NCBI GenBank assembly: GCA_017416445.1
Contig: JAFQCJ010000019.1
Coordinates: 13,442-77,441, forward strand
Source of the DNA: Oscillospiraceae bacterium
GTDB lineage: Bacteria > Bacillota > Clostridia > Oscillospirales > Oscillospiraceae
Direction: 5' to 3'
Length of the DNA stretch: 64,000 nucleotides
In this document: piece by piece, positions 2,311-17,920 of the stretch
How positions within the stretch are numbered: the first letter of the stretch is position 1
How the letters are laid out: each line of letters opens with the position of its first letter
The notes under the pieces: model-generated
Databases searched by the model: none
Seen by the model: the letters and a program-made list of their open reading frames with translations, nothing else
Told to the model about the DNA's origin: nothing
Program-made: the position numbers and the translations under genes

Positions 2311-2652
2311 TTATCCGCATTTTTCCTCACTGTCGCCATGGGAGTGCTTCATCTCAAAGTGGATAAGGAGAGAGAGCAGGGCACGCAGTGCGATGACTAC
2401 CCCCAGCACCAACAGCTCGTGGAGGTCACGGATCAGCACCGTTTTCAGAATCTCAGCAGCCATCTTGAACTCCAGACTCAGCGCAAGCCCCTTGGCCAGG
2501 TGGAACTTGACATCACAGCTGCTTTTGGTAAAGAGGCTGCACATATATTTCCAGAATGCACCCAGCACCGACACCGCCACCACGGCGATTCCCATCAGTT
2601 CACAAAGGGGGATCAAGATCTCCAATACAAATTCCACAATATGCTCCAACAT
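2311..2652 (-). CDS. DUF1622-family small membrane protein
   Basis: LAKGLALSLEFKMAAEILKT and LGVVIALRALLS motifs; three hydrophobic segments; GAGGAG RBS before the ATG at 2652. Confidence 0.8.
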   Translation of the reverse strand: MLEHIVEFVLEILIPLCELMGIAVVAVSVLGAFWKYMCSLFTKSSCDVKFHLAKGLALSLEFKMAAEILKTVLIRDLHELLVLGVVIALRALLSLLIHFEMKHSHGDSEEKCG

Positions 2653-2822
2653 AGTGATTTCTCCTCTTTCGTTTTCTTTTCTGATATTATACGCCTCCGC
2701 TCTCTTTTTTGGAAGTGACTTTGGCAACAGTTGCGCGGTTTTTGTTGTACTTTTCCGTAACCGTGTGATATAATGACCGCAATTATTCTTCCCCCATCTC
2801 CGTGTGGGAAAAGGAGGCGGCT

Positions 2823-4496
2823 ATGCTGCACAATAACTCGACTCTCTCCTGGGATATCTATCCCCGACCCCAGTTACAGCGCAAAAGTTATGTAAACTTG
2901 AATGGCCGGTGGGATTTCGCTGTTTCTTCCCATAGTGACTTCCCTCCCCAATATGATACCGTCATCACCGTCCCTTACTGTCCGGAAAGCACCCTGTCCG
3001 GCTTGGAAGTAACGGTAAAGCCGGGTAGTTATCTCTTCTATCGCCGCACACTGACCCTTCCCGATGGGTTTGTCCACGGACGGGTACTGTTGCATATCGG
3101 CGCCGCCGACCAGGTGTGTGACATTTATGTAAACTCCCACTTTGTCGGACATCACGAGGGCGGCTATACCGCTTTCACCACAGATATCACCGAAGCGCTG
3201 CAGGAGGAGAACACCCTCGTCATCCGCTGCTATGATGATCTGCGGGACACCTCCTTTCCCTACGGCAAGCAGAGCCTGAAGCGAGGCGGTATGTGGTACA
3301 CACCCGTGTCCGGCATTTGGCAGAGCGTGTGGCTGGAGAGCGTACCGCAGCAGTACATTGCGCATCTGGATATCCACACAGACATGACCTGCGCCACTGT
3401 CACCGTCTCGCCGCCCCTGACAGGCGTGGTGCGCTGCGAGGGGGTGGACTATCCCCTCGAAAACGGCTGCGCCGTCATTACTCCCGCCCAGCCGCAACTG
3501 TGGAGTCCCCAGCACCCCCATCTCTACGACTTTACCGTGGAGACAGCAGAGGATACCATCCAGAGCTACTTTGCCCTCCGCACCATTGAATGCAGGGAGG
3601 TCAATGGCATCCCCCGCCTGTGTCTCAATGGGAAGCCCTACTTCCTCCACGGCCTTCTTGATCAGGGCTACTGGCCCGAAGGCATCTACACCGCCCCCTC
3701 CCCTCAGGCATATGCCTCGGATATTCTCGCCATGAAGCGTCTGGGTTTCAACACCCTGCGCAAGCACATCAAGGTGGAGCCGGAGGAATTTTACTACCAG
3801 TGCGACAAGCTGGGCATGATCGTGGTGCAGGACATGGTGAATAACGGCGATTACTCCTTCCTCCGCGACACGGCCCTGCCTACGGTCGGCCTGCAAAAGC
3901 TGGATGACCGCCGTCTTCATCGCGATAACATCACCCGCCGTCGCTTTTTCGACTGTATGACCGAGACGGTGCAGCAGCTGCGCAACCACCCCTCTATCCT
4001 CTGCTGGACGATCTTCAACGAGGGCTGGGGGCAGTTCGATGCCGACAGCGCCTACGATACACTGCGGGCACTGGATTCAAGCCGCATCATCGACGCCACC
4101 TCCGGCTGGTTCCGCCGCCACAAGAGCGATGTGGACAGCCGCCACATCTATTTCGGCCCCTGGTCTCAGCTGAAAAAAGGGGACGGAAAGCCGCTGTTCC
4201 TCAGCGAATTCGGCGGCTATGCCTGCGCTGTGGAGGGGCATCTCTTCAACCCCCAAAACGCTTACGGCTACAAGACCTGCACCTCTGTGTCTGACTTTCA
4301 GACACAGATCGAAGCCCTTTACCGCCGCCGCATCCTCCCCGCTGTGAAAGAGGGCCTCTGCGGTGCCATTATGACACAGGTCAGCGATGTAGAGGACGAG
4401 ATCAACGGCTTCCTCACCTATGACCGCGCCGTGGAAAAAGGCGATGCAGAAACCATGCAGCGTCTGGCACAAGAGCTGCAGAAATCGATCCAATAA
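2823..4496 (+). CDS. Glycoside hydrolase family 2 (beta-galactosidase/beta-glucuronidase-like)
   Basis: YPRPQL, LNGRWDF, HEGGYTAF, SGIWQSVWLE, LDQGYWP, RKHIK, NEGWG (acid/base) and SEFGG (nucleophile). AGGAGG RBS. No signal peptide seen. Confidence 0.9.
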   Translation: MLHNNSTLSWDIYPRPQLQRKSYVNLNGRWDFAVSSHSDFPPQYDTVITVPYCPESTLSGLEVTVKPGSYLFYRRTLTLPDGFVHGRVLLHIGAADQVCDIYVNSHFVGHHEGGYTAFTTDITEALQEENTLVIRCYDDLRDTSFPYGKQSLKRGGMWYTPVSGIWQSVWLESVPQQYIAHLDIHTDMTCATVTVSPPLTGVVRCEGVDYPLENGCAVITPAQPQLWSPQHPHLYDFTVETAEDTIQSYFALRTIECREVNGIPRLCLNGKPYFLHGLLDQGYWPEGIYTAPSPQAYASDILAMKRLGFNTLRKHIKVEPEEFYYQCDKLGMIVVQDMVNNGDYSFLRDTALPTVGLQKLDDRRLHRDNITRRRFFDCMTETVQQLRNHPSILCWTIFNEGWGQFDADSAYDTLRALDSSRIIDATSGWFRRHKSDVDSRHIYFGPWSQLKKGDGKPLFLSEFGGYACAVEGHLFNPQNAYGYKTCTSVSDFQTQIEALYRRRILPAVKEGLCGAIMTQVSDVEDEINGFLTYDRAVEKGDAETMQRLAQELQKSIQ

Positions 4497-4529
4497 AAAA
4501 ATTCCCGACCCTAAGGTCGGGAATTTTTT
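4495..4529. terminator. Bidirectional intrinsic terminator between GH2 and the acnX operon
   Basis: aaaaaaattcccgacc-ctaa-ggtcgggaatttttt. Confidence 0.85.
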
Positions 4530-4537
4530 ATTGGAAG

Positions 4538-4984
4538 TTAGCCGTCCACTTCTACGGTGCCGTCTTCCTTGACGGTGATCATCATACCATCCTTGACATA
4601 GGCAAGGAACTCCTCGCCCAGAGAATCCACCACAGGCATGGTAACGCCCTCCACCCACACATCGGCCAACACTGCACCGGCGGCAGCCAGCGAGTCGATA
4701 GGGTTGGCAAAAAGCATACAGGCGGGGTTCTTCTTCAGGGCGCAGGCACAGTACAGCACCAGACCGCCGGTGGTGGAGCCGATGGTCTGCGGCAGGCACA
4801 GCGCCTTGTTGATAAGGGGTTTGCCGTGAAGTTCGGCGTTGTTCTGGTCACTGCACTTGACCTCTTTGTCGCCAAACTGGAGGGGCATCTGGAGCGATGC
4901 CAGGGTATTGAAGCCCTGTGTGGTAACAACAGCCTCCGCCGTCACCGTACCGGGGGTAATCACTCTGCCTTTAAACTGTTTCAT
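4538..4984 (-). CDS. Aconitase X small (swiveling, DUF126) subunit
   Basis: FKGRVITPG..AEAVV, HGKPL.NKAL, PQTIGST (conserved Ser), DSLAAAGAVLAD, KDGMMITV. ATGA overlap with the upstream gene. Confidence 0.85.
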   Translation of the reverse strand: MKQFKGRVITPGTVTAEAVVTTQGFNTLASLQMPLQFGDKEVKCSDQNNAELHGKPLINKALCLPQTIGSTTGGLVLYCACALKKNPACMLFANPIDSLAAAGAVLADVWVEGVTMPVVDSLGEEFLAYVKDGMMITVKEDGTVEVDG

Positions 4985-6261
4985 TCGGCGTTGCCTCCCT
5001 TCGTGATAGCCTGCAGGATCTGGGCATCGGTATAGTAGCGGGCACTGGTGTAGGTCCGCAGCTTGTTGGAAGAGGTGATGACCGGCATCTTCTTGCAGAG
5101 AGGATTGTTCATGTACATCAAGGGGCAGATATAGGAGGTGATAATGCCCGTGGCCTTCAGACGGGGGGCGTACTCCGTCTTTTCAAAGGCCTCCAGCACC
5201 TTGGGAGGTGCAGTGAACACAGTGGGGATAACCACCTTCTTGTTGCCGCTGTCCTTAAGACCCTGCTCTACCTTCTCCGTCCAATCCTTCAGCTGCTGCA
5301 AAGACAGATGGGGGCATCCCACAAAGCACAGCTTGGGCTTGGCATCGGGATTCTTCCAGATGACAGGATAGTTGTCCTGCACCCGCTGGAGTTCGGCATC
5401 ATCGATGATGTACTCCTTGGCTCCCTCCACGATGAGGCTCTCACCCAGTTCCACGGCCTCGGGAGTCAGCTTGTCGATATGGTACAGGCCTACTGCACCG
5501 TTGGAGGCGGTGGCGGCACCGAAATCCTTGAGATAGGCGCAGGCAGCATCGTCCAGCTCGGTACCCAGCCACTTGTCCAGGCCCACCACATAAGGTACAT
5601 CCTCCATCACCTTCATGCCGATGGCAGAGCCGAGAAGCTGTGCCTCAGGCTTTTTGGTGGTGGCAATCTTTACCACCCAAGTAGCCTTGCGTCCCTCGTC
5701 GGTCAGGAGGCCAAAGTAGGGCACATAGCCCACAATAGAACCCATGATATCAATGATACCGGAGTTGCGGTTGCAGCGGGCACCCAGCACGGAGTTGGCA
5801 TACACCACGGCGCTGGACTCCGCCCAGCTGAGCACTTCGCCCTTTTGGGGCTTGTTGCCCACCTCATCCATGTAGCAGGCGCAGGTGAAGGCATCTTCAT
5901 CCAGCAGCCCCAGTTCCATCAGCTGCTTTTCATAGAAATCCTGCTTGGTGTACATAAACTTGTTAAACACGAAATTCTGCAGGAAGTTGGCAGGGACATT
6001 CTTATCCAGCGGACGGGGATCAACCGAGAACTTCTGCCCCGAGGCCACGCCTGCATCCAGCAGCTGCTGCATCAGGTCGTACACGGGGGCCATGACTTTC
6101 AGTCCGAAGGAGGTGACCAGATGGTTATACTTTGAGGTGATGGGCACCAGCTTTTCTGCACCAAAAGCATCGCCGTACATCACCAGCGTTTTCAGTACCT
6201 TGGCCAGGGTCTCACCCTTTTCGCCGTTTAAGATGGCTTGCTGTTCAGGGGTCAATACCAT
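4981..6261 (-). CDS. Aconitase X large (catalytic, DUF521) subunit
   Basis: MVLTPEQQAILNGEKG N-terminus, TCACY, AESSAVVYANSVLGARCNR, FGAATASNGAVGLYHI..LTPEA, GCPH, ICP and TSSNK. Three candidate Fe-S Cys ligands are present. Confidence 0.88.
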   Translation of the reverse strand: MVLTPEQQAILNGEKGETLAKVLKTLVMYGDAFGAEKLVPITSKYNHLVTSFGLKVMAPVYDLMQQLLDAGVASGQKFSVDPRPLDKNVPANFLQNFVFNKFMYTKQDFYEKQLMELGLLDEDAFTCACYMDEVGNKPQKGEVLSWAESSAVVYANSVLGARCNRNSGIIDIMGSIVGYVPYFGLLTDEGRKATWVVKIATTKKPEAQLLGSAIGMKVMEDVPYVVGLDKWLGTELDDAACAYLKDFGAATASNGAVGLYHIDKLTPEAVELGESLIVEGAKEYIIDDAELQRVQDNYPVIWKNPDAKPKLCFVGCPHLSLQQLKDWTEKVEQGLKDSGNKKVVIPTVFTAPPKVLEAFEKTEYAPRLKATGIITSYICPLMYMNNPLCKKMPVITSSNKLRTYTSARYYTDAQILQAITKGGNAE

Positions 6262-6280
6262 AGTTGTGTTCTCCTTTCGT

Positions 6281-8350
6281 TTACAGCTTCATGCACACAT
6301 CCCATGCGCCCCAGATAACGCTGCGGAGATTACCCACCTTGTTGGCATCACCGATCACATGGATGTGTTTGTCCTTCTGTGCTACAGGGGCGGGCTTATA
6401 GCCCACGGAGAGGATGACGGAGTCGGCCTCCAGGGTAGAGAGGTTACCCTCCTTATCCTTGATAGTCACGGTACCCTCGCCAATCTCAGTGACACCCGTC
6501 TCCAGATACACAGGCACTTTGTTGGCCTCGAAGAAGTCACGGAGGAAGCTGGTGTTGGCAAGGCAGACACCGGGGGTGACAATAAGGTCGTCCATCATCT
6601 CCACGATTTGAGGCTGCTTACCCTGCAGATACAGCTCATAGGCGATCTCGCAGCCGGTGAGGCCGCCGCCGATGATGACCACCTTCTGGCCCACAGCCTG
6701 CTTGCCCAGCAGGAAGTCCACAGCCTGAATGGCGGTATCGGCACCCTTGACAGGAATCTTGTTGGCGGTGGCACCGGTGGCCACGATGACCTCGTCGGCG
6801 CCGAGGGCATTCACATCGGTAACAGGGGTATTCAGCTTCACCTCGATGGGATACTTGGTCAGTTCCCGGCGATACCAGGCGATGAGTGCCTTATCCTTTT
6901 CCTTGAAAGAGGGGGCGGCAGCAGCGATGAACACGCCGCCCAGCTCGCCGGACTTTTCATACAGCGTCACCTTATGGCCCCGCTTGGCGCAGACAAGAGC
7001 TGCCTCCATGCCGCCGATGCCGCCGCCGACGATGGCGATGTTCTTCACCTTCTTGGCAGGCTTGATGTAGTGCTTGGTGGACTGCATGGTCTCGGCGTTG
7101 ATGGCGCAGCGGGCAAGACCCATGGTATCCTTCAAGTCCTGGGTATTATAATGACCCTTGGAAGAGGAGAAATTGAAGCAGCCGCTGTGGCAGCAGATAC
7201 AGGGACGGATATCCTCCAGACGATCCTCCAGCAGCTTGGTGATCCACTGGGGGTCAGCAAGGAACTGACGGGCCACACCCATGCCGTCGATCTTGCCTTC
7301 GGCAATGGCAGCAGCCGCCACATCCGGCTCCATACGGCCGGCACAGACTACGGGAATATCCACAAAGTTCTTGATGTGGGCCACATCGTCCAGATTGCAG
7401 TTCTGAGGCATATACATCGGGGGATGTGCCCAGTACCAGGAGTCATAGGTGCCGTTATCGGCGTTGAGCATATCGTAACCGCAGTCCTGCAGATACTTGG
7501 CAGCACGCTCAGACTCGGCCATGGCACGACCCATCTCCGGCGCATCGTCACCGGGGACGATACCCTTCTGGAACCCCTTGAGCTTGGACTCCACGCTGTA
7601 GCGCAGGGATACGGGGAAATCGTCGCCGCAGCTCTCCTTAATGGCCTTCACCACCTCGGCAGCAAAGCGATAGCGGTTTTCAAAGCTACCGCCGTACTGG
7701 TCGGTACGCTTGTTAAAGAACTCGATGGCGAACTGGTCCAGCAGATAGCCCTCATGGACCGCATGGACTTCCACACCGTCCACACCGGCATCGCGGCAGA
7801 GCTTGGCGGTCTTGGCAAAGGCCTCGATGATCTCGTGGATCTGATGTACCGTCATCTCGGGGCAGATGATGTCGGGAGCCCAGCGGGCAGGCTGGGCACT
7901 GGGAGAGGCCAGCTCGTGGGAGGTGTCGAGGATGGGCTTCAAAATGGCGCGGGTAAACTTGTTCTTATGCAGAGGGCCCACCAGTTCCGTAATAGCCCAG
8001 CTGCGACCCATACCGGCGGTAAGCTGGACAAAGAGTTTGGCGCCGGTCTTGTGGATCTCGTCCATAAAGACCTTCAGTTCCTCGAACATTTTGGGGTTCT
8101 GCCACAGCCATTTCCCCCAGAAGGTGTCGCGCAGAGGGGCAATGCCGGGAATGATGAGTCCCACATTGTTCTGGGCACGCTCCAAAAACAGCTTCGCCGC
8201 CTCCTTATCAAAGTGGCAGCCACCCAGTTCGAACCAACCGAACAGAGAGGTGCCGCCCATGGGACACATGACGATGCGGTTCTTGATCTCCACATTGCCT
8301 ACCTTCCAGGGAGTAAACAATGCCTCGTACTTCTTATCAACAGTGTTCAT
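6281..8350 (-). CDS. Old-yellow-enzyme-family FMN/FAD/[4Fe-4S] enoate reductase (2-enoate reductase/FadH-like)
   Basis: LFTPWKVGNVEIKNRIVMCPM, GVEVHAVHEGYLLDQF, NKRTDQYGGSFENR, CICCHSGC-X23-C cluster motif, two GxGxxG Rossmann motifs (GGGIGG, GGGLTG). AAAGGA RBS before the ATG at 8350. Confidence 0.9.
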   Translation of the reverse strand: MNTVDKKYEALFTPWKVGNVEIKNRIVMCPMGGTSLFGWFELGGCHFDKEAAKLFLERAQNNVGLIIPGIAPLRDTFWGKWLWQNPKMFEELKVFMDEIHKTGAKLFVQLTAGMGRSWAITELVGPLHKNKFTRAILKPILDTSHELASPSAQPARWAPDIICPEMTVHQIHEIIEAFAKTAKLCRDAGVDGVEVHAVHEGYLLDQFAIEFFNKRTDQYGGSFENRYRFAAEVVKAIKESCGDDFPVSLRYSVESKLKGFQKGIVPGDDAPEMGRAMAESERAAKYLQDCGYDMLNADNGTYDSWYWAHPPMYMPQNCNLDDVAHIKNFVDIPVVCAGRMEPDVAAAAIAEGKIDGMGVARQFLADPQWITKLLEDRLEDIRPCICCHSGCFNFSSSKGHYNTQDLKDTMGLARCAINAETMQSTKHYIKPAKKVKNIAIVGGGIGGMEAALVCAKRGHKVTLYEKSGELGGVFIAAAAPSFKEKDKALIAWYRRELTKYPIEVKLNTPVTDVNALGADEVIVATGATANKIPVKGADTAIQAVDFLLGKQAVGQKVVIIGGGLTGCEIAYELYLQGKQPQIVEMMDDLIVTPGVCLANTSFLRDFFEANKVPVYLETGVTEIGEGTVTIKDKEGNLSTLEADSVILSVGYKPAPVAQKDKHIHVIGDANKVGNLRSVIWGAWDVCMKL

Positions 8351-8384
8351 ACGCCATCGATCCTTTCTTTTGTCTCCTGTGAGG

Positions 8385-8432
8385 TTGTCAATAGTATGAA
8401 AATATTGTACTACTCCCCTTTTCAAAACGCAA
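8385..8432 (-). promoter_or_regulatory. sigmaA promoter of the enoate reductase-acnX operon, with an adjacent Rex-like box
   Basis: TTGCGT-17-TACAAT on the minus strand (8432-8404). Imperfect 18-bp palindrome TTGTCAA-tagt-ATGAAAA at 8385-8402. Confidence 0.55.
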
Positions 8433-8472
8433 GAAGAATCCATTTTTCTCCGTATATTTGATATAATTATAC

Positions 8473-8509
8473 AAAAAAGAACGGGCAAGGTCAGCACCTT
8501 GCCCGTTTT
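8473..8509 (-). terminator. Intrinsic terminator of the xpaC-telA-TPM operon
   Basis: aacgggcaagg-tcagca-ccttgcccgtt stem followed by a T-run on the minus strand. Confidence 0.8.
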
Positions 8510-8520
8510 CTGTTTTGCTT

Positions 8521-9495
8521 TCAGCGTCTGCCGCCGCGGAATCCACCGCCGCCAAAGCCGCCGCGACTGCTGCGGCCTCCGCCGCTGCTGCGGCGCACAC
8601 TGCTGCCGCTGCGGCGACCACCACTGAAGCCGCCGCCGTTAAAGCCGCCGGTGGGGCGGTTATTCATGGGACGGGACTGGTTGGGACGGGACTGATAACC
8701 GCCGCCTACAGGAGGGGGAGGTGCCGCGGGACGGGGACGGGCAGGACGGTAGAGACTGCGTCCCCAAAAAATGGGATAGTACCTCACCGGTGCCACGATG
8801 CCGGGGATGATATACCGGCGGCGATAGCGGGTATAGCGCACGCGGTCAAAGAGCACCCATACCACGAAGATCATGAGAACGAGGAATATCACACCCACGA
8901 TGCCGCCACCGGCCTCTTTTCCATGGTCCACCGGCGCATACCAGTCTCCGCCGCTGGACCAACCACTCTTATGGGCAGGGTCAACCTGTCCATAGAATAC
9001 ATCGGCCTGACGGAAGAAGGCTGTCACCGCGCCGTCGAAATCGCCGTCATAATAGGTCTCATCCAGCGCCTGGCGCAGCTTTTGCTGCTGATAATCCTGC
9101 ATCACCGCGCCCACATAGTCGCCCATATAGACCTGCCAGTCGCCATTCTCTACCAGCACAAGGATCATGTCGTTTTCTCCGAGGCCCCACTTTTGACCCA
9201 AAGCCGCAGCGTAGTCCTCGCCATCCCAGCCGTTCAGGCGCTCCACAGTGGCCACTGCCACCACGGCATAATATTTCTCATCCCAGGCGGTATTGTACTG
9301 TGTCACCACCTGCTCCGTGGCGTGATCCAACAGTTCTGCCTCGTCGCAGATCCACTGGCGGTACTCCACAGGCAGTAACTCTGTAGGTTCCTTGGCGAGA
9401 AAATGCTCCTTGCGCAGTTGTCCCAGGAACACAGCGGCTGCTATGGCCAGCACCACAGCGATGATGCCCACCACGCGGTTTGTCGATAATTTCAT
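8521..9495 (-). CDS. TPM-domain (DUF477/YgcG-like) membrane protein with Pro/Gly/Arg-rich C-terminal tail
   Basis: N-terminal TM; ICDEAELL, VVAVATV, LGQKWGLGENDMILVL and YYDGDFDGAV TPM signatures; second TM; GGFGGGGFRGGRR tail. Confidence 0.8.
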   Translation of the reverse strand: MKLSTNRVVGIIAVVLAIAAAVFLGQLRKEHFLAKEPTELLPVEYRQWICDEAELLDHATEQVVTQYNTAWDEKYYAVVAVATVERLNGWDGEDYAAALGQKWGLGENDMILVLVENGDWQVYMGDYVGAVMQDYQQQKLRQALDETYYDGDFDGAVTAFFRQADVFYGQVDPAHKSGWSSGGDWYAPVDHGKEAGGGIVGVIFLVLMIFVVWVLFDRVRYTRYRRRYIIPGIVAPVRYYPIFWGRSLYRPARPRPAAPPPPVGGGYQSRPNQSRPMNNRPTGGFNGGGFSGGRRSGSSVRRSSGGGRSSRGGFGGGGFRGGRR

Positions 9496-9523
9496 AGCGT
9501 TACCCCTTTCAAGGAGTGTTCTC

Positions 9524-10696
9524 TCAGCGATGCAGCTCCATCAGTTTCTGCTTCAGCTCACCCTCAATGCGACCCAGCTCCGCCTCGGCGGCCTTGCGCT
9601 TCTGGGCTCCCTCGGACTGAATACGCAGCACCTCATCGAGGGTGGAGATGAGCTGCTGGTTGGTGTGCTTCAGCGTCTCGATATCCACGATGGAGCGCTC
9701 CGCCTCCTTGGCGGTGGCGATGGTACCCATCTTCAGAGCATCGGCATTCTTTTTCAGCAGTTCATTGGTCATCTCTGTGACGGCACTCTGGGCGGCAGTG
9801 GCCTGACGGCTGTGCTCCATGCCCAGTGCCAGCACCATCTGGCTCTTCCACAGGGGGATGGTGTTCACCAGAGAAGACTGGATCTTTTCGATCATAAGGG
9901 TATCGTTATTCTGCAGCAAACGGGTCTGCGGGCCCATCTGGACAGAGATCATGCGGGTCAGTTCCAGATCATGAAGCTTCTTTTCAAAGCGCTCACACAG
10001 CTGAACATAGTCGTTATATGCCTGGGCATCCTCGGCCAGGCCAGAGGCCTCTGCCTTCTTACGCATCTCTTCCAGCTCGCCGCTACGGACATCCGCCAAA
10101 CGCTTCTTGCCCGCCAGGATGTACATGGTCAGTTCCTTATAGTACTTCAGGTTCAGCTCATACATCTGGTCGAACATGGCCACATCTTTCAAAAGAGTGA
10201 TCTGATGATTCTCCAAACTCTGAGCGATCTTATCCACATTGGCCTCTACCTTGCTGTAGCGGGCCTTGAAGGCCTCCACGCTTTCACCGGCCTTGTAAAA
10301 CAGTCCCTTCAGTCCCTTGGGCTTCTCCAGGGCGGTAAACCCTTTCAGCTCCACCACCAAACGGCCCAGATCGTTGCCGATCTCACCCAGGTCCTTGTTG
10401 CGCACATTGCCCAACGCACCCTCGGAGAAGGAGGCCACGCTTTTCTGTGCCGCAGCACCATACTGTAAAATCTGATTGGTGTCCCGAATATCGATCTTCT
10501 TGGCAAACTCGTTGACGGCAGCCTTTTCTTCCTCCGTCAGCATACTCTCATCCAGCACCACAGGCTCCACCGCCTTTTCCTCCTTGGGAATTGCAGGCGT
10601 GTCGGGCGCTTCGGGGGTCAGGGTCAGCTTGGGCATCTCCACGGCAACAGCGTCATCCGGAGTCAGGGTCAGCTGCGGGATCTTATTCTCGGTCAT
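9524..10696 (-). CDS. telA: Toxic anion resistance protein TelA/YaaN
   Basis: ILQYGAAAQK, LLKDVAMFDQMYELN, FEKKLHDLELTR, QTRLLQNND..EKIQS..VNTIPLWKSQ, ERSIVDIETL. Confidence 0.9.
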   Translation of the reverse strand: MTENKIPQLTLTPDDAVAVEMPKLTLTPEAPDTPAIPKEEKAVEPVVLDESMLTEEEKAAVNEFAKKIDIRDTNQILQYGAAAQKSVASFSEGALGNVRNKDLGEIGNDLGRLVVELKGFTALEKPKGLKGLFYKAGESVEAFKARYSKVEANVDKIAQSLENHQITLLKDVAMFDQMYELNLKYYKELTMYILAGKKRLADVRSGELEEMRKKAEASGLAEDAQAYNDYVQLCERFEKKLHDLELTRMISVQMGPQTRLLQNNDTLMIEKIQSSLVNTIPLWKSQMVLALGMEHSRQATAAQSAVTEMTNELLKKNADALKMGTIATAKEAERSIVDIETLKHTNQQLISTLDEVLRIQSEGAQKRKAAEAELGRIEGELKQKLMELHR

Positions 10697-10736
10697 AGCG
10701 CTTCTTCCTTTCTTTTGTTTTATATTACGATCTTTT

Positions 10737-11456
10737 TTACAGTTCCAGTGTGATCTCTCCTGCACTCACCTGGGTGGCAGTCTCCACCGCAGCGGCGGAG
10801 CTCTCGGCCTCACGCACCGCCTCTTTGAGGCCATCCTCAGTGATACCCTCCCGGGCCAGCATCTGTTCCATTACTACCATATCGGTGGAGATGTCCAGCG
10901 CCTCGGCGGAGAAGAGGTTGTCCAGCTGCTTTTCAAATGCGCGGATGATGGTGGACATCATATTCTCCACGCGCTTCATCGTGGAAGTAATGTTCTCACC
11001 CTCCACCTGCTGCTCCTCCAACACATCGTAGGAGCGCAGCACTTTCAGTGTGGTGGGAAGATAATAGTTCATAAAACGGCGGATGTCCCGCAGTTTTTCG
11101 GGATTGGCCTCCACATGATCGAAGATCCGTTGGGCAAGGATCTGCAGCCGCACAATCTGCCCAGAGATCCCCTCGTCATCAATGGCCGCGTCAAGTACCT
11201 TCATCTCTTCGATGGCAGCCTTTCCCTCGGCAAGCATCTTATCCAGTTCCGCGTTGCCCGTAGTCACGGGCTCTTCGGGCACTTCCACCTCCACATTGCC
11301 ACAGAAACAGCGGGCAATCACACCCACCACCGCCGTGGCGGCAATGGCCAGCAGGAAATGGGGCAGCCGATACAGGGGGAAGAGCAGGCCGTAGAGTACC
11401 CAGGTCAGCGCCACAACATACAGCGGTATGGCGGATTTTTTCACGATTTTTTTCAT
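10737..11456 (-). CDS. xpaC: XpaC-like (5-bromo-4-chloroindolyl phosphate hydrolysis family) protein
   Basis: Two N-terminal TMs; RRFMNYYLPTT.K..Y and LF..EALDISTDM.VM motifs; lies upstream of telA as in the known xpaC-yaaN pair. Promoter TTGACC-17-TATAAT upstream. Confidence 0.8.
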   Translation of the reverse strand: MKKIVKKSAIPLYVVALTWVLYGLLFPLYRLPHFLLAIAATAVVGVIARCFCGNVEVEVPEEPVTTGNAELDKMLAEGKAAIEEMKVLDAAIDDEGISGQIVRLQILAQRIFDHVEANPEKLRDIRRFMNYYLPTTLKVLRSYDVLEEQQVEGENITSTMKRVENMMSTIIRAFEKQLDNLFSAEALDISTDMVVMEQMLAREGITEDGLKEAVREAESSAAAVETATQVSAGEITLEL

Positions 11457-11558
11457 GTCCGACCCTCCGTTTTCAGCATTTCGTATTGGGGTTATTATAC
11501 TCCATCCGCCTCCCTCGGTCAAGAAAAAAGAGACGGCTGCGCCGTCTCTCCTCCCCTG

Positions 11559-12104
11559 TCACAGCCCCTGTGAAATACCCGTCTGGCCTGTTACGGGATC
11601 GGTAAACAGGGGGATCTGTGGTGGGAAAAAGGTCCAGTATACGACGAGGGCCAGAGACAGCAGCAGTATGGCAGCGCCGCAAACCGACCAGAACTTACCC
11701 TGCAGCCTCCCCTTATCCAGCCACCGCCACGAAACAAAAAAAGCCAGCAGCACCGCAAGCTGAAAGATGATAATATTTATAATGGCCACATTGCTGCCGC
11801 TTGCACCCACATAGGTGTAGTACACCGCAGGGATATAAATCACGCCCAGCAGCAGCGCCGCAGCACGGGAGCCAAGAATATTGATGCGACTACGGCGTAA
11901 CGCCAGCGTCTCCAGCACTGACCACAGCACCCATGGTACTACCAGTAGTTTGATGTGCTCCCACACCGACTCGTTGACGGCAGCAATCGCACCAACAGCT
12001 GCGCTCTCTCCTGACCAATCAAAGACAAAGTGGAAGAGATTGCCCCAGATCAGCGTGAAAAACAACCCCGCCACTTCCCACTTACGCCACGATTTTTCTC
12101 TCAT
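11559..12104 (-). CDS. Conserved multi-TM hypothetical protein (DUF6512-like)
   Basis: GNLFHFVFDWSG, AVNESVWEHIKL, YIPAVYYTY and PPQIPLFTDP motifs. Confidence 0.7.
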   Translation of the reverse strand: MREKSWRKWEVAGLFFTLIWGNLFHFVFDWSGESAAVGAIAAVNESVWEHIKLLVVPWVLWSVLETLALRRSRINILGSRAAALLLGVIYIPAVYYTYVGASGSNVAIINIIIFQLAVLLAFFVSWRWLDKGRLQGKFWSVCGAAILLLSLALVVYWTFFPPQIPLFTDPVTGQTGISQGL

Positions 12105-12230
12105 CTGTCCACTTCTCCCTCCGCTGATATTCTCTATCAGTGTACACGGTGCAAGAAGAAAATATGCATTTCACCCGCCCCATTCGATTACTCTTTGTAT
12201 TGTTTCGACAAAATATTACGATACAGATAG

Positions 12231-12264
12231 AAAAACACCCGGGTTCGGATGAACTCGGGTGTTT
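12231..12264 (-). terminator. Intrinsic terminator of the TRAP operon
   Basis: aaacacccgggttc-ggat-gaactcgggtgttt hairpin with A-run on the plus strand. Confidence 0.75.
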
Positions 12265-12290
12265 GGTTCGGATTAGGTTTGTATCCAGCG

Positions 12291-14279
12291 TCAGACCGCT
12301 GCAGCGTTGATTTTCTTGGCGTGGGTGTACTGATACACCACCACAGCCGCCAGTACTACGAGGCCGATGACATCGGTCAGCAGACCGGGAATCATCATGC
12401 ACAGGCCACCGGCAATCAACACCAGACGAAGAACTACAGGCACCTTGCAGTAGAAATGACCATTAAGGGCCGTCGCCACAGAGAACAGACCCAACAGCGC
12501 CGTAATACCAATGACAATCACATCGAAAATCATGGCGCCGATATTGGGCACCACAGCGCCGCTCAGATCCACAAAGAGCATCTCCGGATTATAAGCGAAG
12601 ATATACGGGACAATGAAGGCGGCTATTGCCAGCTTTGTTGCTGTAATACCTGTCTTCATGGGATCGGACTTCGCGATAGCAGAGCCGGCGTAGGCAGCCA
12701 GTGCCACGGGAGGCGTAATGTCTGCCACGATGCCAAAGTAGAACACAAAGAAGTGGGCGGCCACCACATTGAAGCCCAGCTGTACCAGAATGGGGGCACA
12801 GGTAGCAGCCATGATGCAGTAGTTGGCGGTGGTGGGAACGCCCATGCCCAGCACGATGCAGCAGATCATGGTCAGCACCAGACCGATGATGGTAGCATTA
12901 CCGGCGAGGTTGACAATACCGTTGATGAGGATAGATGCAAGACCGGTAACAGTGATGCATCCGGCAATGATACCGGCCATAGCGCAGGCCACAGCCACGG
13001 TGACAGCGCCGCGGGCACCGGCCTCGAGAGCCTCGAGGATCTTGCCGGGGGTCAGTCGCTCCTCGGAGTTGAGGAAGCCCACCACGATGGCGGCAAGGAT
13101 AGACACAGAGGCGGAGAACTGCATGGTACGGGCACCGGAGGAGACCAGGCCGATCAGCAGCACCAGAGGCAACAGCAGATAGACCTTCTTCAGCAGATAG
13201 CTGACCTTGGGCAGCTCGCTCTTGGGAATACCCTTCAGACCCAGTTTCTTGGCCTCCAGATGGACGGTAATAAAGATACCGGCAAAATAGAGAACGGCGG
13301 GCAGAATGGCCTTGATGGCAACCTGAATATAGGGAATATCCATGTACTCTGCCATCAGGAAGGCGGCAGCGCCCATGATGGGAGGCATGATCTGACCACC
13401 GGTGGAGGCAGCAGCCTCAACAGCGGCGGCAAACTCGGGCTTATAGCCCGTCTTCTTCATCAGCGGGATGGTGATAGAGCCGGAACCCACGGTGTTGGCC
13501 ACGGAAGAACCGGAGCACATACCCTCCAGGGCACTGGCAACCACGGCCACCTTGGCGGGGCCGCCGGAGTAGGCGCCCACCAGACGGTTGGCGAACTGGA
13601 TGAAATAGTTGCCGATACCGGTACGCTCAAGAAATGCACCGAAGATGATGAAGAGGACAATATAGGTGTAGCAGACATTGATGGGGGTACCGATCACACC
13701 GGAGGTGGTGTAGAACAGCTTATAGATAATGTTCTTCAATGCCTGATAGAAGTCGGGATTATAAGAGAGCTGATTGTAGAATGCGTAGATCACCAGCGCA
13801 CCCACCACGCAGAGAATAGGAACACCTACGCAGCGGCGGCACAGTTCGATCAGCACCAGAATGCCCACGATGCCGATGACAACATGGTGCGGCTGAATAC
13901 GGGTAGCGACCTTAATGATAGGCAGGGCATTGAACGCGAAGTAGAAAAACGCGCCTGCACCTAAAACCATCAACACGATATCATACCAGGGGATGTGATT
14001 GACACGCACATGCCCCTTCTTGGCAGGATAGGTGATGAATCCGACAACAATAATAAAACCGAGGAACAGGGTAAGCCGGGTCTCAGGCAGTGCCGTGGAG
14101 AACAGCGTCATACCAATGCAATACAGGGCGAAGGCAGCCAGCAGACAGCGCACAACGATCTTGGGCACGCCCTCCCAGACACGGGTAGCGGATTCGCGGT
14201 CATATTTCCGCATTACCGCCTCAAGGTCCATATCGTGGTCATGAACCGCGTCGGCCTTGTGTTTTTTGAACAAACTCAT
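12291..14279 (-). CDS. TRAP transporter fused 4TM/12TM permease
   Basis: GGPAKVAVVAS, SGSSVANTV.SGS.TIPLMKKTGY, EAAASTGGQIMPPIMGAAAFLMAE, LGMGVPTTANY, ADITPPVALAAY. Confidence 0.93.
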   Translation of the reverse strand: MSLFKKHKADAVHDHDMDLEAVMRKYDRESATRVWEGVPKIVVRCLLAAFALYCIGMTLFSTALPETRLTLFLGFIIVVGFITYPAKKGHVRVNHIPWYDIVLMVLGAGAFFYFAFNALPIIKVATRIQPHHVVIGIVGILVLIELCRRCVGVPILCVVGALVIYAFYNQLSYNPDFYQALKNIIYKLFYTTSGVIGTPINVCYTYIVLFIIFGAFLERTGIGNYFIQFANRLVGAYSGGPAKVAVVASALEGMCSGSSVANTVGSGSITIPLMKKTGYKPEFAAAVEAAASTGGQIMPPIMGAAAFLMAEYMDIPYIQVAIKAILPAVLYFAGIFITVHLEAKKLGLKGIPKSELPKVSYLLKKVYLLLPLVLLIGLVSSGARTMQFSASVSILAAIVVGFLNSEERLTPGKILEALEAGARGAVTVAVACAMAGIIAGCITVTGLASILINGIVNLAGNATIIGLVLTMICCIVLGMGVPTTANYCIMAATCAPILVQLGFNVVAAHFFVFYFGIVADITPPVALAAYAGSAIAKSDPMKTGITATKLAIAAFIVPYIFAYNPEMLFVDLSGAVVPNIGAMIFDVIVIGITALLGLFSVATALNGHFYCKVPVVLRLVLIAGGLCMMIPGLLTDVIGLVVLAAVVVYQYTHAKKINAAAV

Positions 14280-14410
14280 GGGGTTTTCTCCTAATCCGAA
14301 AAATTGTAAAGAACGCACGAGGACTACGGCGGGAAAATCCCGCCGTAGTCTCGTTAATTACCGATAGACAGGCCTAACGGCCTTTCTCCGTCAGTGTCCG
14401 CACTAAGGAA

Positions 14411-15397
14411 TCAGCCGGCGACAGTGAAGCCCTTCTCAGCGAAGTACTTGGCAGCACCGGGATGGTAGGGGACAGAGGTGATGGAGGAGCCGTACTCCAG
14501 GCTCAGCTCGCCGTACTTGGCATGGCTGGAGACCAGATTGGCAGCATTGTCGAAGATGTCGGCGCACAGGGCGTAAACAGCATCCTCGGACACAGTGTTG
14601 GCAGCCAGGATGACAGCACCCACGGCCACGGTGGTCACATCGCCGTCGAGACCGGCATAGGTATCAGCAGAGATGACATTCTTGGCATAGTAGGGGGAGG
14701 AGGCCAGCAGTGCCTCAATATGCTCGTCATCCAGAGCCACCAGATGGACATCCTTGGTGGTAGCCAGATCGGTGATAGCAGCGGTGGGAGCACCGGAAAC
14801 CACGAAAGCGGCATCGATCTGACCATCCTTCAGGGAGGAGGCGCTATCGCCAAAGCCCTGGTAGGTGGGCTCAATGTCAGCCTCGGTCAGGCCATAGGCA
14901 CCCAGAATGTCGATGGCGTTGAAGTACACACCGGAACCGGCGGCACCGATGGAGACCTTCTTACCGGCCAGATCAGCAACAGTCTTGATCTCGGGATCCA
15001 GCGTCACGATCTGCACCTGCTCCATATACAGAGCTGCCACAGTGGAGAAGCAGTCAATCGCACCCACTTCGGCAAACAGGTTGGTACCCTCATAGGCGTA
15101 AGCCATTACATCGGACTGGCAGAAGGCCAGCTCAGCATTGCCGTCCAGCAGCTCCATGACATTGGACTGGGAACCGTTACCCACCAGACCCACAACATCC
15201 ACACCGGCGTTGTTGGTGGCGTGCTGGGCAATGACGGAACCGAAGGCATAATAGGTGCCGGACTCACCGCCGGTCACAAAACGCAGCTTGGAGGGGGCGG
15301 GAGTATTGCCTTCGCCACCATCGGCGGGGGCGCTGCCGCAGGCCACCAGGCTGAGTGCCATCACGAGGGCCAGAACCAGAGCAAAAAACTTCTTCAT
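14411..15397 (-). CDS. TAXI-family TRAP solute-binding lipoprotein
   Basis: Lipobox LVAC; TGGESGTYY, QSDVM, LYMEQVQIV, GKKVSIGAAGSG, DGQIDAAF, VPYHPGAAKYF. Confidence 0.93.
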   Translation of the reverse strand: MKKFFALVLALVMALSLVACGSAPADGGEGNTPAPSKLRFVTGGESGTYYAFGSVIAQHATNNAGVDVVGLVGNGSQSNVMELLDGNAELAFCQSDVMAYAYEGTNLFAEVGAIDCFSTVAALYMEQVQIVTLDPEIKTVADLAGKKVSIGAAGSGVYFNAIDILGAYGLTEADIEPTYQGFGDSASSLKDGQIDAAFVVSGAPTAAITDLATTKDVHLVALDDEHIEALLASSPYYAKNVISADTYAGLDGDVTTVAVGAVILAANTVSEDAVYALCADIFDNAANLVSSHAKYGELSLEYGSSITSVPYHPGAAKYFAEKGFTVAG

Positions 15398-15480
15398 AAC
15401 AGTATCTCTCCTTGCGAATCAGAATATTGCGGGAAACCCGCGTGCCGCCGCAAGCGGCGGACTTTTTACTCGATGGTCGT

Positions 15481-15509
15481 ATTATACTACTCACTTTTCA
15501 TTTTTGCAA
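15481..15509 (-). promoter_or_regulatory. sigmaA promoter of the TAXI-TRAP operon
   Basis: TTGCAA-17-TATAAT on the minus strand. Confidence 0.75.
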
Positions 15510-15753
15510 GTCCTAATTTTAAAAATTTCATTTTAATTTTTTCGTTTTTTCTGTTTTCTCCCTTCCATCACCGCAAATTCCATGTTTTTACAACATTTTT
15601 ACAGAATACTCTCTTCTCGCTAAAGCTGCATGCCTTTCATTTTGCAAGTCTTTCCTGCAAAAATTGCAATTTTTGGGACTTAACTTGCATTTTCCCATTC
15701 TTGCTCCACAATATCTCGTGTTTTGTTCGCCGCTGCCGCACAATTGGGACATC

Positions 15754-15786
15754 AAAAAAGAAGAGCCCCGCAGGGCTCTTCTTTTT
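15754..15786 (-). terminator. thrS terminator
   Basis: aaaaaagaagagccc-cgca-gggctcttcttttt. Confidence 0.85.
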
Positions 15787-15804
15787 GGTATATTGGGACT
15801 TTTT

Positions 15805-17598
15805 TTACTTCTTGGCCTTGGTGTCCACAACTTCCTTCACCAGTGCCACAAACTCCGCTACACTCATGGCGCCCAGATCGCCGTCGGCGCGGTGACGGGG
15901 AGAGACGGTACCGTTCTCGATGTCGCGATCGCCCACGATCACCATGTAGGGAACCTTCTCCATCTGACCGTCGCGGATCTTCTTGCCGATCTTCTCGTTG
16001 CGGTAGTCCACCTTAGCGCGGACACCGGCCATCTGCAGCTGCTCCTGCACAGACTTGGCATAATCGGCAGCGCGATCGGTAACAGGCATGACACGGACCT
16101 GCTCATCCATCAGCCAGGTGGGCAGCGCACCGGCATACTCCTCAATGAGGTAGGCCAGAGTACGCTCATAGCAGCCCATGGAGGTGCGGTGGATGATATA
16201 GGGCAGTGCCTTCTCGCCGTTCTCGTCGATATAGTACATACCGAACTTCTCAGCCAGCAACATATCCACCTGAATGGTGACCAGCGTATCTTCCTTGCCG
16301 AAGACATTCTTGTACTGGATATCCAGCTTGGGGCCGTAGAAAGCGGCCTCGTCGATACCCACCTCGTAATCAATGCCCAGATTGTCAAGGATCTTACCCA
16401 TGACAGCCTGTGCCTCTTCCCACTGCTGGGCAGTACCCTCGTACTTGTTGTTGGGGTTGGCGGGATCCCACTGGGAGAAGCGGAAGAAACACTTATCCCA
16501 CATGCCCAGAGTCTCCATCATATACTTGCTCAACTCGAAGCAGCGGTGGAACTCCTCCTCCAGCTGATCGGGACGCAGCACCAGATGGCCCTCGGAAATG
16601 GTGAACTGGCGGACACGGATGAGGCCGTGCATCTCACCGGAGTCCTCGTTGCGGAACAGGGTGGAAGTCTCGCCCAGGCGCATGGGCAGATCACGGTAGG
16701 AGCGCTGACGGTTCAGATAGACCTGATACTGGAAGGGGCAGGTCATAGGACGCAGAGCAAAGCACTCAGCGCTCTCATCGTGGGGATCGCCCATGATGAA
16801 CATACCATCCAGATAATGATCCCAGTGACCGGAGATGCGGTACAGGTCGCGCTTGGCCATCAGAGGCGTCTTGGTGCGGACATAACCCCACTTCTCCTCC
16901 GTGTCCTCCACCCAGCGTTGCAGCTCCTGAATGGCACGGGTGCCCTTGGGCAGCAGCACAGGCAGACCCTGACCCACATAGTCCACCGTGGTGAAGTACT
17001 CCAGCTCACGACCCAGCTTGTTATGGTCGCGCTTGAGAGCCTCAGCCTGCTGGGCAAGGTATGCGTCCAGCTCATCCTTCTTGGGGAAAGCCACAGCATA
17101 GATACGCTGGAGCATCTTGCGGTTGGAGTCGCCGCGCCAGTAAGCACCGGTAGCGGAGGTCAGCTTGATGGCGTTGCCCTTAATGCGGCCGGTGGAATCC
17201 AGATGGGGGCCGGCACACAGGTCAACGAACTCACCCTGCTTATAGAAGCTGATAACAGCATCCTCGGGAAGGTCGTTGATCAGCTCTACCTTGTAGGGCT
17301 CTTCCTTCTCCTCCATAAACTGGATGGCCTCGGCGCGGGGCAGCTCGAAGCGCTCCAGTTTCAGCTTCTCCTTGCAGATCTTGCGCATCTCAGCCTCCAT
17401 GGCCTCCAGATGCTCGGCGGTAAAGGAGAAGGGCGCATCGAAGTCATAGTAAAAACCGTTCTCGATGCTGGGACCGATGGCCAGCTTCACCTCGGGGTAC
17501 AGGCGCTTGACAGCCTGTGCCAGCACATGGGAGCAGGTGTGCCAGTAGGTCTGGCGGTATTCCTTGTTTTCAAAAGTGTAGATGTTCTCTTCGCTCAT
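15805..17598 (-). CDS. thrS: Threonyl-tRNA synthetase lacking the N-terminal TGS domain
   Basis: HTCSH and DLCAGPH editing motifs, RDHNKLG, SGHWDHY, LRPMTCP, HGLIRVRQF, AAFYGPKLD, IIHR, GKKIR anticodon domain. Confidence 0.97.
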   Translation of the reverse strand: MSEENIYTFENKEYRQTYWHTCSHVLAQAVKRLYPEVKLAIGPSIENGFYYDFDAPFSFTAEHLEAMEAEMRKICKEKLKLERFELPRAEAIQFMEEKEEPYKVELINDLPEDAVISFYKQGEFVDLCAGPHLDSTGRIKGNAIKLTSATGAYWRGDSNRKMLQRIYAVAFPKKDELDAYLAQQAEALKRDHNKLGRELEYFTTVDYVGQGLPVLLPKGTRAIQELQRWVEDTEEKWGYVRTKTPLMAKRDLYRISGHWDHYLDGMFIMGDPHDESAECFALRPMTCPFQYQVYLNRQRSYRDLPMRLGETSTLFRNEDSGEMHGLIRVRQFTISEGHLVLRPDQLEEEFHRCFELSKYMMETLGMWDKCFFRFSQWDPANPNNKYEGTAQQWEEAQAVMGKILDNLGIDYEVGIDEAAFYGPKLDIQYKNVFGKEDTLVTIQVDMLLAEKFGMYYIDENGEKALPYIIHRTSMGCYERTLAYLIEEYAGALPTWLMDEQVRVMPVTDRAADYAKSVQEQLQMAGVRAKVDYRNEKIGKKIRDGQMEKVPYMVIVGDRDIENGTVSPRHRADGDLGAMSVAEFVALVKEVVDTKAKK

Positions 17599-17635
17599 GG
17601 GATATTCCTCCTTCAAGATTCGGGGTGTAAGAGGA

Positions 17636-17880
17636 TAAAAAATCCCCACCCCTGACATGGTTCTCAGGGGTGGGGTAATACATTACTCCACGGTTCCACC
17701 CTGCTTACAGCACTTGTGTGCTGTCGCTCGTGTGCCTTTTAACGGAGGCAAATCGTTCCGGTCATCCCGGACGGCTCAGGAGTGGTACAGACCGCCCAAC
17801 CACCATGCATCGCTTCCAGCCAGGGCGACGCTCTCTTGTTCGGTGTGGTTACGGCTTCTTCTCCGTCATCGCTGTTTTTA
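17636..17880 (-). ncRNA. T-box riboswitch (Thr) upstream of thrS
   Basis: Minus strand: GCGATGA start, AGAGA and GCTGGAA stem I motifs, probable specifier ACC (17784-17786), T-box GGTGGAACC (17692-17700), terminator ccccacccctga...tcaggggtgggga-TTTTTT. Confidence 0.92.
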
Positions 17881-17891
17881 CATCAACGGAT

Positions 17892-17920
17892 AGTATAAAC
17901 CCTTTTTTATTCCTTGTCAA
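17892..17920 (-). promoter_or_regulatory. sigmaA promoter of the T-box/thrS leader
   Basis: TTGACA-17-TATACT, overlapping the 3' end of the HAD gene. Confidence 0.8.

Follow-up and report, generated by a model that had tools for sequence, protein, structure and literature searches.

We analyzed a stretch of 64,000 nucleotides (nt), referred to below as the window, from an Oscillospiraceae bacterium (GCA_017416445.1, contig JAFQCJ010000019.1, positions 13,442 to 77,441 of the forward strand). The source is a metagenome-assembled genome (MAG) that is 66% complete. The element under study is a trio of minus-strand genes that encode, in the order of transcription, an ene-reductase and the large (AcnL) and small (AcnS) subunits of an aconitase X (AcnX). 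Open reading frame (ORF) calls, Pfam matches and coordinates agreed with the layout described in a first-pass annotation of this DNA, namely three co-oriented genes with a 19-bp gap between the first two and an ATGA overlap between the last two. In this overlap, at 4981-4984, the start of acnS coincides with the stop of acnL. The parts of the trio are as follows.

6281..8350, minus strand: ene-reductase, 689 amino acids (aa), from the most likely start ATG 8350 to the stop at 6281; Oxidored_FMN (E 2e-54) and Pyr_redox_2 (E 6e-37)
6262..6280, minus strand: intergenic gap of 19 nt with an AAGGAG ribosome-binding site, as read from the sequence
4981..6261, minus strand: AcnX large (catalytic) subunit, AcnL, 426 aa; PF04412 (E 1.5e-90)
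4538..4984, minus strand: AcnX small (swivel) subunit, AcnS, 148 aa; PF01989 (E 3.5e-10)

Aconitase X and ene-reductase of the trio

The best PDB match of AcnL was 7cnr_A (E 2.6e-38), and AcnS matched 7cnr_B (E 5.8e-6). An AlphaFold (AF2) model of AcnL had a predicted local distance difference test (pLDDT) score of 94.6 and template modelling (TM) scores of 0.81/0.89 to 7cnr_A in Foldseek. With separate large catalytic and small swivel subunits and the AcnX fold, the protein falls within Type II aconitase X. The roles of individual residues follow Watanabe et al. 2021 (PMC8184944). C127, C316 and C379 of AcnL aligned with the Fe-S cluster ligands Cys110, Cys283 and Cys342 of the enzyme from Thermococcus kodakarensis (TkAcnX) and were invariant in 109 orthologues. 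E148-S149-S150, K400 and Y404, which include the Glu-Ser, Lys and Tyr set binding the carboxylate and the C3 hydroxyl (PMC8184944), were invariant in the same number of orthologues. In AcnS, the motif G69-S70-T71-T72-G73 was invariant in 108 orthologues, and S70 occupied the aligned position of the general base (Ser62(S) in TkAcnX, Ser70 in AtAcnX).

Aconitase X has only two known activities, and Type II has been split into subclasses a-f, of which c-f are uncharacterised, so that four of the six have no assigned function (PMC8184944). The window AcnX belongs among these uncharacterised subclasses, and it was compared with both characterised activities. It shares the two-subunit architecture and fold with TkAcnX, a Type IIb (R)-mevalonate-5-phosphate dehydratase (PDB 7cnr/7cns; also represented by PMDh of Aeropyrum pernix), as well as the three Cys ligands of a [4Fe-4S] cluster, the Glu-Ser pair, the Lys, the Tyr and the small-subunit Ser that acts as general base. 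It differs from TkAcnX in its bacterial host, its ene-reductase partner and the lack of a UbiD decarboxylase partner, and the identity is only ~26%. The phosphate-binding Asn79 of TkAcnX is replaced by an invariant Asp81, in an alignment column that rests on the TTLNP motif. The phosphate loop Gly48-Val49-Ser50...Asn53 aligned within H47-LVTSFG-LK55 of the window protein, with an uncertain register in this loop. A UbiD-type decarboxylase (PF01977) was not found in the genome G000 (66% complete) or in four 100%-complete genomes carrying the cassette. The replaced phosphate-binding residues and the lack of UbiD in these five cassette genomes speak against an assignment as mevalonate-5-phosphate dehydratase.

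With AtAcnX, a cis-3-hydroxy-L-proline (C3LHyp) dehydratase, the window AcnX shares the superfamily fold, the catalytic Ser, Glu, Lys and Tyr and the swivel-domain Thr72. The Cys pattern of the window protein is that of a [4Fe-4S] site, whereas AtAcnX-type enzymes have a [2Fe-2S] site. Among the AtAcnX landmarks Asp203, Trp35, Ile206 and Thr72, only Thr72 is kept; the position of Trp35 is occupied by Leu28(S) of AcnS, and the loop aligned to Asp203 contains no Asp. The C3LHyp-dehydratase equivalog model NF051439 scored 132.7 bits against a cut-off of 700, and no hydroxyproline genes were found near any of the 80 related loci described below. Membership of the hydroxyproline clade was rejected on these grounds. 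The first-pass annotation had left both assignments as conditions that would speak against its proposal, and the window AcnX lies outside both clades.

The reductase consists of an OYE barrel, a Cys motif and a Pyr_redox_2 module with two GxGxxG dinucleotide folds (at 442 and 561). The Cys motif PCICCHSGC (from about 382-384 onward) reads C382-x2-C385-x3-C389, with a distal C414 in RCAIN. The barrel, the four-Cys motif and the Pyr_redox_2 module with both GxGxxG folds place the protein in the FMN/FAD/[4Fe-4S] 2-enoate reductase/FadH family. Its nearest PDB structures were FadH (1ps9) and 2-naphthoyl-CoA reductase (6qkg), and the nearest NCBIfam models were the long form of BilR (365.9 bits, cut-off 750) and BaiCD (343.1 bits, cut-off 825). 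Since the reductase scored below every curated equivalog cut-off, it was identified neither as BilR nor as BaiCD. The three-module architecture, the Cys motif and the OYE-type His...His...Tyr site are common to the clostridial 2-enoate reductases, FadH, BilR and BaiCD/BaiH, but the window reductase differs from all of these by its separate clade and its genetic linkage to a dehydratase gene.

The OYE site motif EVHAVHEGYLLDQF was invariant in 94 reductase orthologues. The substrate barrel, with EVHAVHEGYLLDQF and NADNGTYDSWYWAHPP among other segments, was the best-conserved part of the protein, above the NAD/FAD module; this conservation peak indicates a defined organic substrate and not merely a supply of electrons. 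A maximum-likelihood tree resolved the reductases of the gut loci as one clade (support 100/100). The AcnX-paired reductases as a whole were not monophyletic, and unpaired paralogues branched between the gut clade and the other AcnX-paired enzymes.

Conservation of the AcnX-reductase linkage

In a species-level scan (one genome per species), at least 594 loci encoded a close relative, and the best 80 of these (AcnL identity 80-90%) were analyzed. AcnS adjoined AcnL in all 80. Among the 77 loci with room upstream, the reductase gene was directly upstream (<=200 bp) in 72, and in four more it lay within 1 kb. In a sample of 301 genomes drawn evenly from the order, the reductase gene was adjacent in 23/29 loci. 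AcnL was encoded in 49 of the 301 genomes, and each of the 46 with a complete copy also encoded an orthologue of the reductase (57-82% identity). Thirteen genomes of the order sample carried AcnX and reductase genes that were not adjacent, either on different contigs or 14-45 kb apart; the neighbours of these 13 copies were unrelated housekeeping genes. The order AcnL-AcnS-reductase, swapped with respect to the window, was found in two genomes (G040 and G087).

The only genome with a gut-clade reductase (58% identity) and no AcnX was G190 (locus L133, G190:C14:1-8500), which is 100% complete and belongs to the same family as the source of the window. Its lone reductase gene adjoins a gene of the xanthine/uracil-permease family. 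Another reductase gene located away from AcnX (L129:7558-10270, genome G257) is directly preceded by genes for a ferredoxin-NADP-reductase-like protein (FAD_binding_6, NAD_binding_1 and Fer2) and an amine-oxidase-like flavoprotein.

Homologues of AcnL with 38-62% identity from other lineages also adjoin OYE/FAD reductases. These loci are L032, L135 and L141, together with four others that were the sole matches outside the order in a phylum-wide sample of 400 genomes. Their partner reductases are 27-44% identical to that of the window and are located on either side of AcnX. As the AcnX-paired reductases do not form one clade, the pairing either recurs or is ancient. Two AcnL matches outside the order (L151 in G544 and L152 in G447) contain one in-frame stop each, TAA and TGA respectively, which may mark either a broken gene or a stop at the end of the match. 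The linkage presumed by the first-pass annotation thus held in other genomes: on three mutually independent grounds (adjacency, co-occurrence of non-adjacent genes and recurrent pairing with different reductase lineages), the association of AcnX with the reductase is not due to chance.

All flanking ORFs of the 80 loci were clustered, and 40 upstream and 40 downstream neighbours were searched against Pfam. No conserved flanking gene was detected in this way besides an occasional MarR regulator directly upstream, which accounted for 8-13 Pfam matches among 40 immediate same-strand upstream neighbours and for an ORF cluster of 13 loci. In three of the 80 loci (L060, L063 and L069), a gene of the ketopantoate-reductase family (ApbA and ApbA_C, 338 aa) follows acnS directly as a co-oriented fourth gene. 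The flanks differed in nearly every genome, and the carrier MAGs were labelled as members of several families. By far most of the loci came from MAGs of the hindgut or faeces of ruminants and other animals, which describes a biased catalogue and is not evidence of enrichment. The top matching sequencing runs were likewise animal gut metagenomes.

Transcription signals, reductase start and neighbouring genes

The noncoding features around the trio are listed below.

4496..4530, no strand assigned: bidirectional intrinsic terminator between acnS and the convergent GH2 gene, predicted by folding; 4492-4540 folds with a free energy (dG) of -22.3 kcal/mol, z -5.3, followed by a T run
8478..8509, no strand assigned: predicted bidirectional intrinsic terminator closing the upstream TPM/TelA unit and insulating the trio; 14-bp stem; 8470-8515 folds with dG -25.4 kcal/mol, z -7.1, likewise with a T run
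8466..8494, minus strand: promoter-like site CTGACC-17 nt-TATAAT, sigma-70-like; consensus match only, 10/12 positions
8351..8462, minus strand: leader of ~110 nt; fold not significant (z -1.2)

Folding thus bore out the terminators that the first-pass annotation had placed on both sides of the trio. Because the hairpin at 4496..4530 is flanked by A/T, it would be able to terminate the convergent GH2 gene too. The single promoter proposed at the same time fared less well. A consensus match is present, but promoter-like sites were no more frequent in the region than in shuffled sequence (3 seen vs 2.5 expected), and the -35 element of this site sits within the stem of the upstream terminator. 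The leader matched no Rfam family at a permissive threshold, the only hits being chance matches on the terminator hairpin. A riboswitch or structured leader as a clue to the ligand was dropped on account of this result and the leader fold.

Three in-frame starts are available for the reductase, GTG 8497, ATG 8443 (preceded by a good GGAG) and ATG 8350, and position 8432, at which the locus had originally been ended, is not among them. Orthologues align with the reductase from residues 1-5, that is, they begin at ATG 8350. In four gut metagenome and metatranscriptome runs, related contigs gave dense cover up to 8347; the bin 8348-8488 had no cover in either RNA run and next to none in the two DNA runs. 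The relatives showed no conservation in the leader region. The start of the reductase is accordingly placed most likely at ATG 8350, as judged from the aligned sequences. The in-frame ATG at 8441-8443, with its strong GGAG, lies 93 nt upstream of the conserved start and would add 31 residues absent from all orthologues. Possible explanations are an extension peculiar to this strain, a short upstream frame that runs into the reductase gene, and a start that is not used.

The neighbours of the trio in the window are a convergent GH2 glycosidase gene, TPM and TelA genes upstream, and a DUF6512 gene. The GH2 glycosidase gene (564 aa, 2802-4496, plus strand) converges on the operon and has a common terminator with it; this pairing is not kept in other genomes. 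No genes for a CoA ligase, CoA transferase, UbiD or hydroxyproline enzymes were found near the trio, in agreement with the earlier description.

Proposed route, its substrate and related systems

Both enzymes retain intact catalytic sets, which are compatible with the logic of dehydration followed by reduction put forward in the first-pass annotation. From these residues and the known reactions of both families, we infer that the trio forms a self-contained module that dehydrates and then reduces its substrate independently of coenzyme A (CoA), and we give this reading a probability of roughly 55%. In the first step, AcnX would hold a [4Fe-4S] cluster on C127, C316 and C379 and bind a free carboxylate via S149, K400, T71(S) and Y404. 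S70 of AcnS would take the C2 proton, and the cluster, together with E148 and K400, would expel the C3 hydroxyl to yield a 2-enoate. In the second step, electrons from NAD(P)H would pass via FAD and the [4Fe-4S] cluster to the FMN of the reductase, and the C2=C3 bond would be saturated in the strictly conserved OYE site. The net reaction would convert a 3-hydroxy acid into a saturated acid with the use of one NAD(P)H, and would serve a fermenter as an electron sink.

Several observations weigh against this module. In roughly one in four genomes of the order sample, the two partners were non-adjacent, and the presence of the reductase without AcnX in G190 means that it can work alone. Co-transcription of the trio is presumed solely from the 19-nt gap and the ATGA overlap. 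Relatives of all three genes were present in animal-gut RNA libraries, as assembled contigs, which attests presence and not a single transcript; none of the RNA-library pieces listed bridged a gene junction, and the small shares in X19 and X20 belonged to relatives and not to the strain of the window. A weak search for a fused reductase-AcnX protein found none among longer proteins, apart from one odd match of 1032 aa. Finally, no linked substrate clue, transporter or downstream enzyme was found, so that the pathway has no visible entry or exit.

The two enzymes might also act in another order or role. The reductase could act first, for example on a dienoate or oxo-enoate, with AcnX then hydrating or dehydrating the product, or AcnX, instead of catalysing the entry step, could be a hydratase or isomerase that brings a double bond or hydroxyl into conjugation, like classical aconitases. 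The reductase gene does come first in the gut clade, and the aconitase superfamily catalyses reversible hydration (PMC8184944). The gene order is swapped in other clades, however, and therefore carries no information. Both characterised AcnX enzymes are one-way dehydratases of beta-hydroxy acids (PMC8184944), the catalytic residues are all retained, and reduction of a 2-enoate would thermodynamically pull the dehydration, which is the simpler logic. We regard such an alternative order or role as unlikely. A role of the reductase as electron-supplying partner, either keeping the AcnX cluster reduced or active or powering a reductive dehydroxylation directly on it, would equally explain the tight co-occurrence as that of an obligate redox partner, and AcnX clusters are sensitive to oxygen and difficult to reconstitute (PMC8184944). 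But conservation is highest in the OYE substrate barrel and not in the NAD/FAD module, characterised AcnX enzymes need no reductase, relatives of AcnX pair with reductases of just 27-44% identity to that of the window, and G190 keeps the reductase alone. Such a partnership is thus improbable.

A variant of the hydroxyproline route would have AcnX dehydrate a 3-hydroxy imino acid and the flavoenzyme take the place of pyrroline-2-carboxylate reductase, to give proline or an N-methylated proline. T72 of AcnS, which binds the ring nitrogen in AtAcnX and is Val in TkAcnX, is invariant. In addition, a related trio in a member of the Bacillota (L155:5940-12368, genome G528), with a sigma-54/PAS activator followed by genes for a reductase (~42% identity), AcnL (53%) and AcnS, has a convergent gene of the proline-racemase family (PF05544, E 1e-128) as its immediate downstream neighbour. 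These points are opposed by the low equivalog score (133 bits), the loss of Asp and Trp at the positions of AtAcnX Asp203 and Trp35 and the lack of hydroxyproline genes around the 80 loci. The proline-racemase family PF05544 was not found in five near-complete genomes carrying the gut cassette either. This variant is given little credence. The least credible alternative, already disfavoured, is that two unrelated functions travel together as a mobile block. The diversity of flanks and of MAG labels suggests horizontal transfer of the block, but the co-occurrence persists in the 13 genomes in which the genes are not adjacent, the order has been rearranged without loss of adjacency, and other AcnX clades pair with non-orthologous reductases.

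Turning to the substrate of the dehydration-reduction module, one lead came from a sister AcnL clade (43% identity) from Desulfobacterales and Anaerolineae, in which five of the six contexts examined lie in quaternary-amine clusters. In L141 (1-19314), the genes encode BCCT, a corrinoid protein, MttB, the reductase, AcnL, AcnS, EamA and two further MttB proteins. In L135, the trio is located between MtbB (Dimeth_Pyl) and MttB-family genes that were called in pieces (2584-3969 and 10189-13292), with two sigma-54/PAS activators in the flanks; the pieces may reflect in-frame pyrrolysine (TAG) codons. The methylamine and quaternary-amine clusters of L135 and L141, both contigs of Desulfobacterales type, also contain amidohydrolases and up to three MttB paralogues. 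In L142, L144 and L159 (about 9001-17900 each), AcnL and AcnS are ~7 kb apart and no ene-reductase is present. The genes in between encode a class-III aminotransferase, an ADP-forming acyl-CoA synthetase, an MttB homologue and a member of the 3-hydroxyacyl-CoA-dehydrogenase family; in L142 and L159, genes for an electron-transfer flavoprotein (ETF) and of the 4-hydroxybutyryl-CoA-dehydratase family are found upstream. When metagenomes were scanned for additional sister-clade loci, the patterns used gave no confirmable match.

A C4 beta-hydroxy amino or betaine acid, for instance carnitine or 4-amino-3-hydroxybutyrate, would match the context of the sister clade, and the sister loci that bear the trio fit a conversion of carnitine via crotonobetaine to gamma-butyrobetaine without CoA. 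In the gut clade, the exchange of Asn79 for Asp81 and the conservation of Thr72(S) would be compatible with a distal group that is cationic or contains nitrogen; the hint comes from an alignment and is weak, and Asp occurs at that column in several clades. The specificity loop of the gut-clade AcnX differs from that of the sister clade, which speaks against extending the carnitine-like reading to the gut enzymes. The five near-complete cassette genomes yielded no BCCT, OpuAC or MttB, which also argues against a carnitine or betaine substrate in the gut clade, and uptake or demethylation of such compounds there was rejected on this basis. It is unlikely that AcnX of this subfamily and the ene-reductase process beta-hydroxy amino or betaine acids by a route independent of CoA, with L-carnitine converted to crotonobetaine and gamma-butyrobetaine before MttB-type demethylation in the sister clade and the same or a related cationic 3-hydroxy acid used by the gut trio. 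Di- and tricarboxylate transporters in the five cassette genomes (DASS 0/5, CitMHS 3/5) were not linked to the trio and were not informative.

In a broader classification of possible substrates, a small beta-hydroxy acid with a nitrogen-bearing or cationic distal group (carnitine, 4-amino-3-hydroxybutyrate or a 3-hydroxyproline-like compound) is a tentative candidate, at clearly less than even odds. A hydroxy di- or tricarboxylate is unlikely, an aryl or other membrane-permeant hydroxy acid more unlikely still, and the remaining weight falls on something beyond these three classes. The substrates suggested in the first-pass annotation (citrate or aconitate reduced to tricarballylate, aryl-hydroxypropionates and cyclic hydroxy acids) gained no support, and the related clades point instead to nitrogen-bearing beta-hydroxy acids.

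A literature search returned no description of a pairing or pathway of AcnX with an ene-reductase. Both enzyme families are already known. The trio is present in about 600 species-level genomes of gut Clostridia and marks out a two-enzyme pathway that is directly testable. If the proposed route is true, it would extend the electron sinks known from gut fermenters by a CoA-free reductive dehydroxylation. Should the substrate be an acid of plant or host origin, the route would account for one of the saturated end products of hindgut fermentation. A carnitine-like substrate would bear on the biology of trimethylamine and trimethylamine N-oxide (TMAO), and the carnitine route, if true, would represent an unrecognised microbial source of gamma-butyrobetaine, a precursor of trimethylamine.

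The proposed module follows a logic known from two other pathways. In the carnitine pathway of E. coli, the dehydratase CaiD and the reductase CaiA act on CoA esters, and in the 7-alpha-dehydroxylation of bile acids the dehydratase BaiE is combined with BaiCD/BaiH. In both, a hydroxyl is eliminated to give a conjugated C=C bond, which is then reduced as an electron sink. The dehydratases of the Cai and Bai pathways have crotonase and SnoaL folds, respectively, and are unrelated to AcnX. The Cai pathway also requires activation with CoA, whereas the trio has no linked CoA ligase or transferase and AcnX binds free carboxylates.

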